A stretch of DNA of 6,713 bases, taken from IMG/VR virus record IMGVR_UViG_2534682164_000011, positions 1-6,713 of that record; one strand, 5' to 3'. Below the pieces are notes generated by a model. That model did not search any database. It was not told where the DNA came from and saw only the letters and a program-made list of their open reading frames with translations. A program made the position numbers and the translations under genes. Each line of letters starts with the position of its first letter. Within the stretch, counting starts at the first letter, position 1. This document shows positions 3,737-4,885 of this stretch, one piece after another. Source of the stretch: a virus (taxonomy: Duplodnaviria > Heunggongvirae > Uroviricota > Caudoviricetes).

Positions 3737-4885
3737 ATGGCCGCATTACCATACATGCAACTGTACATAGCTGATTACCTGGCTGACACCATGCATTTGT
3801 CAGCAGAGGAGCACGGCGCGTATTTGTTGCTGATGTTCAATTACTGGCAAACAGGAAAGCCAATACCCAAAAACAGGTTGGCAAAAATTGCCCGTCTGAC
3901 TAACGAGCGATGGGTTGATGTTGAACCATCCTTGCGGGAGTTTTTTTGTGATAACGGCGACGAATGGATGCATCTTCGGATTGAGGAAGATCTGGCATCT
4001 GTCAGAGAAAAATTAACCAAAAAATCAGCCGCAGGAAAAGCATCTGTTCAGGCCAGAAGAAGCAGAAAGGAAGCAGATGTTCAAACAAAACAAGAGAGAA
4101 ATTTAACAGGTGTTCAAACAGATGTTGGAGTGATGTTCGAACATGATGCCAACACAAAGGCAACTAATAAAGATACAGATAAAGATCTAAAAACAGATCT
4201 AACCCATCCCAAACCCTTCCCTTCCGGAAGGGAGTTTCGGGATTTTGTGGCTGGAGTGCTTGAGGGGAGATTATCTGGCGGTACTGCAGCGGAATTTTGT
4301 AATTCTGCGGTGGTTGCGTTGCAGGCTGCTGGCCTGGATGTCTGTCGTGAGTATCCGGTGCCAGAGCGTGGTGACGGTTGCGGAGGGCGGATTGATATCG
4401 TCGTGACTGACAGGAACGGTGTCCGGTGTGGGAGCGAGCTTGACCGAAATTCTCCGCGACAGAAATCACTGCTCAAAATCGGTGCTGTTGAAACCGGGAT
4501 ATGTGTCTTGCGGCGCAGTGATATCGCAAGGCACACCGAGCAGGGAATTCTGGTTATCGGTGGGGCTGTTCGCCAGAAAAAATTTGACCCGTTGTCAGTT
4601 GATCTGCCCGACTGGTTGCCAGAAACACTCTGGCATGAGTGGGTCCAGTTCAGGCAGGCATTGCGAAAACCGATTCGAACGGAGCAGGGCGCTAACGGGG
4701 CGATACGGGAACTGGAAAAATTCCGTCAGCAGGGTTTTACACCTGAGCAGGTGATTCGACACAGCATCGCCAATGAATACCAGGGTCTGTTCGCGCCGAA
4801 AGGTGTTCGGCCTGAGACGTTGCTCCGACAGGTTAACACCGTCTCGTTGCCGGACAGTGCGATCCCGCCAGGCTTCAGGGGGTAA
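3737..4885 (+). CDS. ydaU: YdaU-like replication-initiator-position protein (N-terminal DUF1376-type domain, K/T/D-rich linker, C-terminal domain)
   Basis: Long ORF (track 3686..4885). The ATG at 3737 (MAALPYMQLYIADYL...) is preferred as start over 3686, though no strong SD is visible for either. Sits immediately upstream of the DnaC-like gene, as the O-like gene sits before P/DnaC in lambdoid replication modules. Confidence 0.7.
   Translation: MAALPYMQLYIADYLADTMHLSAEEHGAYLLLMFNYWQTGKPIPKNRLAKIARLTNERWVDVEPSLREFFCDNGDEWMHLRIEEDLASVREKLTKKSAAGKASVQARRSRKEADVQTKQERNLTGVQTDVGVMFEHDANTKATNKDTDKDLKTDLTHPKPFPSGREFRDFVAGVLEGRLSGGTAAEFCNSAVVALQAAGLDVCREYPVPERGDGCGGRIDIVVTDRNGVRCGSELDRNSPRQKSLLKIGAVETGICVLRRSDIARHTEQGILVIGGAVRQKKFDPLSVDLPDWLPETLWHEWVQFRQALRKPIRTEQGANGAIRELEKFRQQGFTPEQVIRHSIANEYQGLFAPKGVRPETLLRQVNTVSLPDSAIPPGFRG
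4073..4142. repeat. Iteron-like direct repeats inside ydaU: CAGATGTTCAAACA (4073-4086), CAGGTGTTCAAACA (4106-4119), GATGTTCGAACA (4131-4142), followed by an A-rich stretch (4160-4200)
   Basis: The TGTTC cores at about 4045, 4078, 4112 and 4134 are spaced about 33, 34 and 22 bp, close to multiples of the helical repeat. TGTTCGAACA is itself palindromic. Located in the linker-coding part of the initiator-like gene. Confidence 0.35.

Follow-up and report, generated by a model that had tools for sequence, protein, structure and literature searches.

A candidate replication origin of 11-bp-phased dyad sites and an A-rich tract inside the initiator-like gene ydaU of a Rac-type prophage

Where does replication of a Rac-type lambdoid prophage begin, and can the place be recognized in its DNA? 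The question is raised by a stretch of 6,713 nucleotides from a virus of the class Caudoviricetes (IMG/VR record IMGVR_UViG_2534682164_000011, positions 1 to 6,713; hereafter, the window), whose content, judged from gene calls and Pfam, is the immunity and replication module of such a prophage, and in which an earlier note had pointed to iteron-like repeats followed by an A-rich segment within the gene ydaU (3737..4885, plus strand; 382 amino acids, aa). In the textbook lambdoid origin, repeats bound by the initiator and an AT-rich tract are situated inside the initiator gene. This is the case of phage lambda, whose initiator gene contains dyad-symmetric initiator sites and then an AT-rich tract (PMC7466680). 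The location of an origin in an initiator gene is a known lambdoid arrangement, and the active origin of Rac, oriJ, is also long known (PMC3945230); oriJ-based plasmids were studied by Potrykus et al. (2000), as cited in PMC11014345. Based on the comparisons described here, we consider it likely that positions 4044-4201, in the linker-coding part of ydaU, constitute the replication origin of the Rac-type prophage module. In its layout this origin would resemble that of lambda, with YdaU as a candidate initiator unrelated to lambda O.

The first part of the element is an array of short dyad sites (TGTT-YR-AACA, together with degenerate units) in 11-bp register. Just as had been proposed, the motif TGTTC(A/G)AACA recurs, with copies starting at 4077, 4110 and 4133 and a weaker one at 4044. 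Site 1 (ATGTTCAAACA, 4077..4087) shows the dyad TGTT-CA-AACA and is followed by site 2 (GTGTTCAAACA, 4110..4120) and by site 3 (ATGTTCGAACA, 4133..4143), whose core TGTTCGAACA is a perfect palindrome and whose codon frame is unlike that of sites 1 and 2. The weak site (CTGTTCAGGCC, 4044..4054) is found 33 bp upstream of site 1, in register, and GAAGCAGA occurs at 4059 and 4070, 11 bp apart. Between sites 2 and 3 there is a degenerate unit (GATGTTGGAGT, 4121..4131), homologous to a full CGTTGA unit of relatives, with its GTT core 12 bp after that of site 2 and 11 bp before that of site 3. Beyond site 3, the half-units GCCAAC and GGCAAC (4148..4164, with CAAC at 4150 and 4161) are 11 bp apart and in the register of the GAAC of site 3, being the counterpart of the CCAACG units that recur every 11 bp in relatives. 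When the sequence is laid out in rows of 11, the register spans from 4044 to 4165. Some details of the earlier description need correction: the start-to-start spacings, given as about 33, 34 and 22 bp, are 33, 33 and 23 bp; only copies 1 and 2 carry the CAG prefix; and the repeats, read as iterons, are not three isolated ones but part of a longer 11-bp-phased array of short dyad sites.

With the pattern RTGTTCRAACA, the window yields four matches (the three sites, one of them on both strands) where 0.03 would be expected; in 200 shuffles, four matches were never attained. As this pattern was picked post hoc, unbiased scans were also carried out. A window-wide search for 10-mers with no more than one mismatch ranked the ydaU array as the top cluster; between +300 and +400 of ydaU, the density of repeat pairs was 30 and 42 per 50 bp, with most other bins at 0-8 and the runner-up at 15. 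Over 4040-4170, the bases show an autocorrelation of 0.42 for lag 11 and of 0.46 for lag 33; neither the lag-11 value nor the sum for lags 11, 22 and 33 was reached by any of 5000 codon shuffles. Copies 1 and 2 are read as D/G-V-Q-T, while copy 3 uses another frame and gives M-F-E-H, which makes the repeat a feature of the DNA and not a peptide repeat. Furthermore, the motif was found nowhere else in the window, including the immunity and promoter region, and is thus not an operator of the immunity region.

The segment at 4160-4200, which had been described as A-rich, coincides with a low G+C content (GC) and a low duplex stability. GC falls to 31.7% at 4140-4199, the lowest value within 3000-5700, and among the 40-mers of the window that of 4162-4201 has the lowest duplex stability once the AT-rich left end, which resembles insertion sequences (IS) and ipaH, is set aside (free energy, dG, of -42.9 vs. 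a mean of -55.8, standard deviation 4.8). This A-rich tract (AACTAATAAAGATACAGATAAAGATCTAAAAACAGATCTA, 4162..4201), a candidate unwinding element with GATC at 4184 and 4196, is a degenerate (GATACA)n repeat, the window sequence AAAGATACAGATAAAGATC being a degenerate version of the tract found in relatives. Together, the repeats and the tract occupy +308 to +465 from the ydaU start. Directly beyond the tract there is a G+C-rich palindrome (TCCCTTCC/GGAAGGGA, 4218..4233), at whose equivalent position K-12 and O157 carry a different one, CCCCC/GGGGG. The cluster of GATC within the A-rich tract (window 4184-4199, and its equivalents in loci L019-L029 of our collection) resembles the GATC-rich unwinding region of oriC.

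Is the protein encoded around this element a plausible initiator? YdaU comprises, in this order, a DUF1376 domain, the linker, whose coding sequence contains the candidate origin, a middle domain specific to the window and a DnaT-like C-domain (aa 290-382). The only Pfam match is DUF1376 (PF07120), at aa 5-87 (87.7 bits vs. a cut-off of 30.1, E 6.7e-25), a region predicted to fold as a winged helix and to continue as a helix to about aa 114. The C-terminal 93 residues (aa 290-382; window 4604-4885) match the C-domain of DnaT (2ru8, E 1.9e-4; 9zbt, E 7.6e-4), and also phrog_678, annotated as “replication initiation O-like” (E 1.9e-23). Precomputed annotations assign PF07120 together with PF17948 to many YdaU homologues; the full-length NCBIfam DnaT model scores far below its cut-off against YdaU. 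Comparison with lambda O gave no relationship, neither by BLASTP (best E = 1.9) nor as a match to PF04492 (Phage_rep_O). Immediately downstream, ydaV (4892..5638, plus strand) encodes a DnaC/IstB-like AAA+ helicase loader (PF01695, E 4.3e-18; phrog_50, “DnaC-like helicase loader”, E 7e-82).

The middle domain (about 115 aa; phrog_1347, of unknown function) is encoded by an in-frame segment of 378 bp (4199..4576, plus strand) that is absent from the ydaU of K-12 and O157, and whose mosaic junction coincides with the exact end of the A-rich tract, at +463. It shares 34% identity (E 3e-23) with the central part of an initiator of lambda-O type (PF04492) from the Providencia phage PSTCR7lys, where the corresponding segment is likewise found directly after iterons and an A-rich tract; only four close homologues were found in a word-indexed protein search. 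Its motif RIDIVV...GSELD...SPRQKS looks like a nuclease fold of the Vsr/DUF559 type, for which a single weak family match was obtained, with the Providencia protein (PF18741, E 0.06). The AlphaFold2 model of the domain was poor (predicted local distance difference test, pLDDT, 46.5).

Known in-gene origins behave in the same manner under these measures. In lambda, the repeat metric peaks on the annotated iterons, which occupy +349 to +433 of gene O (counted from its start), and the 40-mer of lowest GC is found at +435; in the O-type gene of PSTCR7lys, it peaks on four palindromic repeats of about 19-23 bp (+345 to +434) that are followed by an A-rich stretch. The lambda origin, as well as its Stx-phage and P22-type variants, occupies the linker-coding middle of the initiator gene as the window element does (+349 to +433 vs. 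+308 to +465). The neighbors match as well: in lambda and in the window, genes like cro and cII precede the initiator gene and a helicase-loader gene follows it. The mosaic junction of lambda is likewise found just beyond the AT-rich tract (misc_recomb at +472 and +480 vs. +463 in the window). The two systems differ in geometry, since lambda has four 18-bp iterons spaced by 20-24 bp whereas the window has abutting sites of 10-11 bp in 11-bp register, and in their proteins, as YdaU is not a member of the lambda O family, has a DnaT-like C-domain and is accompanied by a DnaC-like loader instead of lambda P (encoded next to six of 66 relatives). Iterons of plasmids are typically of 17-22 bp, spaced by about 22 bp and placed outside the rep gene. 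The contiguous 11-bp units inside the ydaU gene differ from such iteron-type origins with winged-helix Rep proteins (e.g., pSK41-type, PDB 4pta). On the other hand, the gene order ydaU-ydaV mirrors dnaT-dnaC of the replication-restart primosome of E. coli, and the C-domain of YdaU aligns with residues 92-179 of DnaT, with the common ending ...VNTVS-PDS-IPPGFRG; DnaT, however, is without a DUF1376 domain and works at PriA-bound forks, not at a specific origin. In this sense, the proposal of a lambda-like origin in ydaU is supported by the domain layout of the initiator, the ydaV loader downstream, the lambda-like position and the recurrence in distant relatives, and all the predictions of a lambda-like in-gene origin tested at the level of sequence are supported.

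The recurrence was examined across the DUF1376 family. Phage loci were gathered by tblastn with the N-domain and 80 genome loci through two N-terminal peptide motifs, a selection that was blind to the linker, and clustering left 69 non-redundant DUF1376 loci. Counted from the gene start, repeat-pair density in these loci is highest between +300 and +450 (median 9-13 per 50 bp vs. about 4 elsewhere), where 48-64% of loci reach a density of at least 10, compared with about 15% elsewhere. Direct repeats spaced by 11 bp are found within this zone in 37/69 loci, by 22 bp in 21/69 and by 33 bp in 16/69, and the family-wide autocorrelation is strongest at lag 11, with control regions showing the codon period only. 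A strict criterion for an array (a 9-mer with at most one mismatch, at least three copies and spacings at multiples of 11 ± 1 bp, in-frame spacings being excluded) was satisfied by 22/69 loci vs. 3/334 equal-sized control windows (Fisher p = 9e-16). The motifs are lineage-specific, yet the copies are alike within each array: the Rac motif is TGTTCAAACA; CGTT(C/G)AACG is found in phages and prophages of Pseudomonas, Serratia, Rahnella and Moraxella, and CGACCGTTCAACG in Serratia and Rahnella; Pseudomonas and relatives carry CGTTSAACG, AGCGAACGC and CAACGGACG; many alphaproteobacteria have AGCAATGCT; and further lineages show AGCGAACGC, GATGCTCAG or ATGCAAATGCA. A 4+4 palindrome is present in 13 of the 22 consensus units, compared with 8.5% of background 15-mers.

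The AT-rich component also recurs. Across the family, GC is 7-10 points lower between +330 and +450, and in 46/69 loci the 40-mer with the lowest GC in the gene falls at +300 to +450. Among the 42 loci of at least 55% GC, Asp is encoded by GAT in 66% of cases in the linker vs. 34% in the remainder of the gene (p = 6e-12), and Thr by ACA in 36% vs. 12.5% (p = 7e-11); this synonymous shift toward A/T means that the AT-richness is not solely due to amino-acid composition. A (GATACA)n-like tract follows the array in 22/69 loci, whose GC ranges from 41 to 66%, vs. four matches in 328 kb elsewhere; it encodes DTDT, retains one nucleotide sequence across this GC range and is found at +370 to +450 (L005, L032, L036, L040, L045, L047-L053, L055-L057 and others). 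GATC is present at 18 per kb at +390 to +490 vs. 3-4 per kb elsewhere in ten Enterobacterales representatives, a small and related sample. The DnaT-like C-domain occurs in only 8/69 family members, and its association with the (GATACA)n tract is not significant (5/22 loci with the tract vs. 3/47 without it, p = 0.10), for which reason the idea that this domain might bind the opened strand or read the tract is speculative.

The family further offers cases where the gene and the element are partly separated. In the Moraxella phage Mcat25 (L011, 3380-3500), the DUF1376 gene is short (144 aa) and carries at its 3' end an array of ACCGTTCAAC with spacings of 11 and 22 bp; in the Moraxella phages the AT-rich part is intergenic and non-coding, before a separate small gene. 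A gene that ends within the element, with the AT-rich part left between genes, points to a role at the level of DNA. The genes that follow were called by Pfam scan, because tblastn with single queries was too insensitive (16/69). The next gene downstream, examined at 66 loci, is IstB/DnaC-like in 11, DnaB-like in seven and lambda P in six, with Toprim, other helicases and DnaA-C-like genes in more; since loader or helicase genes come next, DUF1376 genes sit in the position of gene O.

Rac of E. coli K-12 brings a genetically defined origin, oriJ, into the comparison, as its ydaU shares the array and the A-rich tract with the window. The array is also present in O157 prophages and in induced or inducible Rac-like phages. 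In K-12 (NC_000913), the array and the tract are kept with four single-base differences across 4110-4150, the identity over window 3245-4199 being 96%; site 3 reads TGTTTGAACA there, the inverted form of site 2, which fits the dyad consensus TGTT-YR-AACA. Besides the extra middle domain of the window, the C-terminal part of ydaU and ydaV are more divergent between the two (86% identity). The candidate at 4044-4201 is presumably oriJ. No sequence-level map of oriJ was found in the literature searched, where the only oriJ-labelled primers lie in ydaV; recent papers on Rac contained nothing on ydaU sites or on the position of the origin. Two observations on other copies of ydaU are added here. 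In Shigella flexneri SFBU1023 and E. coli ECMA0423, an IS2-like element of 1.33 kb (L014/L015, 2914-4244) is inserted within the array, between site 3 and the CAAC half-units (equivalent to window 4145-4149), with a 5-bp duplication GATGC, thereby disrupting ydaU and the candidate origin. In E. coli FDAARGOS_944 (L001, 4695-5894), RefSeq shows two “YdaU family” pseudogene fragments, and the frame of 382 aa is intact in the window; the extra middle domain is probably what leads the annotation pipeline astray.

Several points weigh against an origin at 4044-4201, whose support is comparative. The strict array criterion selects just 22 of the 69 loci; in O157 prophages site 1 carries A in place of C, and Citrobacter braakii lacks this site; and a motif of the CGTTCAAC type is common to N-domains only about 30% identical, on account of which recognition of the sites by YdaU itself is inferred. 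Linkers with a high content of K, D, E, N and T are A-rich on account of their amino acids, and (GATACA)n is an in-frame DTDT repeat of period 6 and 12, so that the A-rich signal could partly reflect the protein. The sole sequence-level pointer to oriJ, a primer pair for the polymerase chain reaction described as framing it in a supplementary table (De Paepe et al., 2014), falls within ydaV, some 700 bp downstream of the array (amplicon at K-12 1,422,240-1,422,394, L003 4241-4395, about window 5149-5303). Could the repeats then be by-products of a low-complexity peptide linker (xVQT, DTD, KD), with no role in the DNA? The weak copy and copies 1 and 2 are exactly 33 bp, or 11 codons, apart and encode SVQA, DVQT and GVQT; many relatives have in-frame (GATACA)n of period 6 or 12 coding for DTDT, the peak zone often shows distances of 12, 24 and 36 bp, and charged or polar linkers are A-rich. 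However, the frames of copy 3 and of the degenerate unit are different, and 11 bp, one of the two commonest distances family-wide, is not a multiple of 3, so that one motif is read in all three frames; the synonymous A/T shift of high-GC linkers and the non-coding AT-rich part in Moraxella argue in the same direction. This explanation is largely refuted for the 11-bp array, and we hold it to be very unlikely as a whole. Chance similarity in an A-rich coding stretch, which the earlier note had offered as its own refutation, has a practically negligible probability: with 10-11 bp the motifs are short, and their pattern was set post hoc, but the repeat scans of the window, the codon shuffles and the recurrence in independent lineages (with the Fisher test given above) refute it.

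Some more room, although still not much, is left for a real protein-binding element that would serve regulation, with YdaU or another phage or host protein bound inside ydaU so as to attenuate transcription into ydaU-ydaV or to be sequestered there, and with oriJ elsewhere, for instance in ydaV, where the oriJ-framing primers fall. Phased arrays of short sites also serve winged-helix regulators of the OmpR/PhoB/ArcA type and centromere-binding proteins of plasmids, which counts in its favor. Nevertheless, the amplified stretch of ydaV has no repeat cluster and no AT signature (47-62% GC), no promoter-like site is present in 3600-4700, and the array is always paired with an AT-rich tract and adjoins helicase or loader genes, as in lambda. 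The motif is, moreover, absent from the immunity and promoter region and unlike the YdaT site, TTGATTN6AATCAA (PMC9986795). Readings as an internal promoter, an operator or a known RNA are unsupported, since no sigma-70-like promoter was found in 3600-4700 and an Rfam scan of the window gave no RNA family. Very unlikely, in turn, is the binding of the sites by a host factor, such as an ArcA-like regulator, instead of the phage initiator. ArcA binds direct repeats of TGTTA 11 bp apart. The succession TGTTC, TGTTG, TGTTC at spacings of 12 and 11 bp has an ArcA-like layout, and the CGTTCAAC-type motif is shared among N-domains of about 30-67% identity; against this, motifs vary within one host order, the Enterobacterales having TGTTCAAACA in Rac vs. 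CGACCGTTCAACG in Serratia and Rahnella, a diversity that fits a phage-encoded protein evolving along with its sites. Terminase (pac/cos) sites and a plasmid-type centromere were also considered and rejected on gene context.

How might a replication origin at 4044-4201 work? The 11-bp register places all sites on one face of the helix. By analogy with lambda, dimers of the YdaU N-domain, a predicted winged helix, would bind the sites cooperatively and form a compact complex similar to the lambda O-some. This complex could then strain and open the adjacent A-rich, (GATACA)n-like tract (4162-4201), which in Dam+ hosts also carries GATC sites, and the variable C-domain of YdaU, DnaT-like in this case, might bring in the YdaV loader together with host DnaB once the DNA is open. 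Activation may be assisted by transcription that runs rightward from the ydaS promoter across the origin. More broadly, and only tentatively, since we hold this to be rather less probable than the opposite, DUF1376 could serve for origin binding in a large family of initiators encoded by phages and prophages, in Proteobacteria and beyond, each with an in-gene origin of contiguous dyad sites in 11-bp register and a conserved (GATACA)n tract. If the family were so organized, the DNA would be coated by the initiator along one face, and (GATACA)n could be a specific element for unwinding or single-strand recognition, beyond mere AT-richness, with a role like that of DnaA-trios or of the 13-mers of oriC.

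The genes around ydaU and ydaV complete the module. The immunity region contains a RacR-like repressor gene with a helix-turn-helix (HTH) domain (2496..2915, minus strand; Pfam HTH_3, E 4.6e-13; its counterpart in near-identical E. coli loci is labelled an HTH protein), followed by a ydaS/cro-like HTH gene (3012..3254, plus strand; HTH_3, E 6.7e-10; K-12 Rac synteny), which heads the rightward operon through ydaU, and by ydaT (3251..3673, plus strand; YdaT_toxin, E 2.4e-11), the functional equivalent of cII. A GCAATTTTGT-like sequence occurs three times, at 2863, 2890 and, inverted, at 3016, between and into the divergent repressor and cro-like genes; these copies, at 2863-3025, are probably the operators of the immunity switch. 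Beyond ydaV there are a DUF977 gene (5653-6069) and a fragment of an IS3-family integrase (6066-6545), and the left part holds a leucine-rich-repeat (ipaH-like) fragment (237-680) and an IS630-like transposase gene (859-1890). The module being bounded by the leucine-rich-repeat fragment, the IS630-like gene and the IS3-family fragment, a degraded prophage remnant in a Shigella-like genome is suggested. The top matches to the window are E. coli and Shigella prophages, and among complete E. coli genomes none covers more than 70% of the window in a single place. As part of an IS-flanked prophage remnant, the module in the window may no longer be used.

In the literature searched, which did not cover the older oriJ papers, no description was found of the placement of an origin in ydaU, of the contiguous 11-bp dyad geometry, of the association across the DUF1376 family, or of the conserved (GATACA)n tract. 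If confirmed, these results would pin the long-known but poorly defined oriJ to an element of 160 bp, and would provide functions for two y-genes of E. coli K-12, with ydaU encoding the initiator and ydaV its loader. The 11-bp contiguous geometry and the (GATACA)n tract would represent testable variations on the opening of DNA by initiators. Likewise, DUF1376 would become a recognizable origin-binding module, together with a simple sequence rule for locating prophage origins, which would aid in annotating the replication modules of prophages, in judging which cryptic prophages are replication-competent and in building phage-derived replicons.

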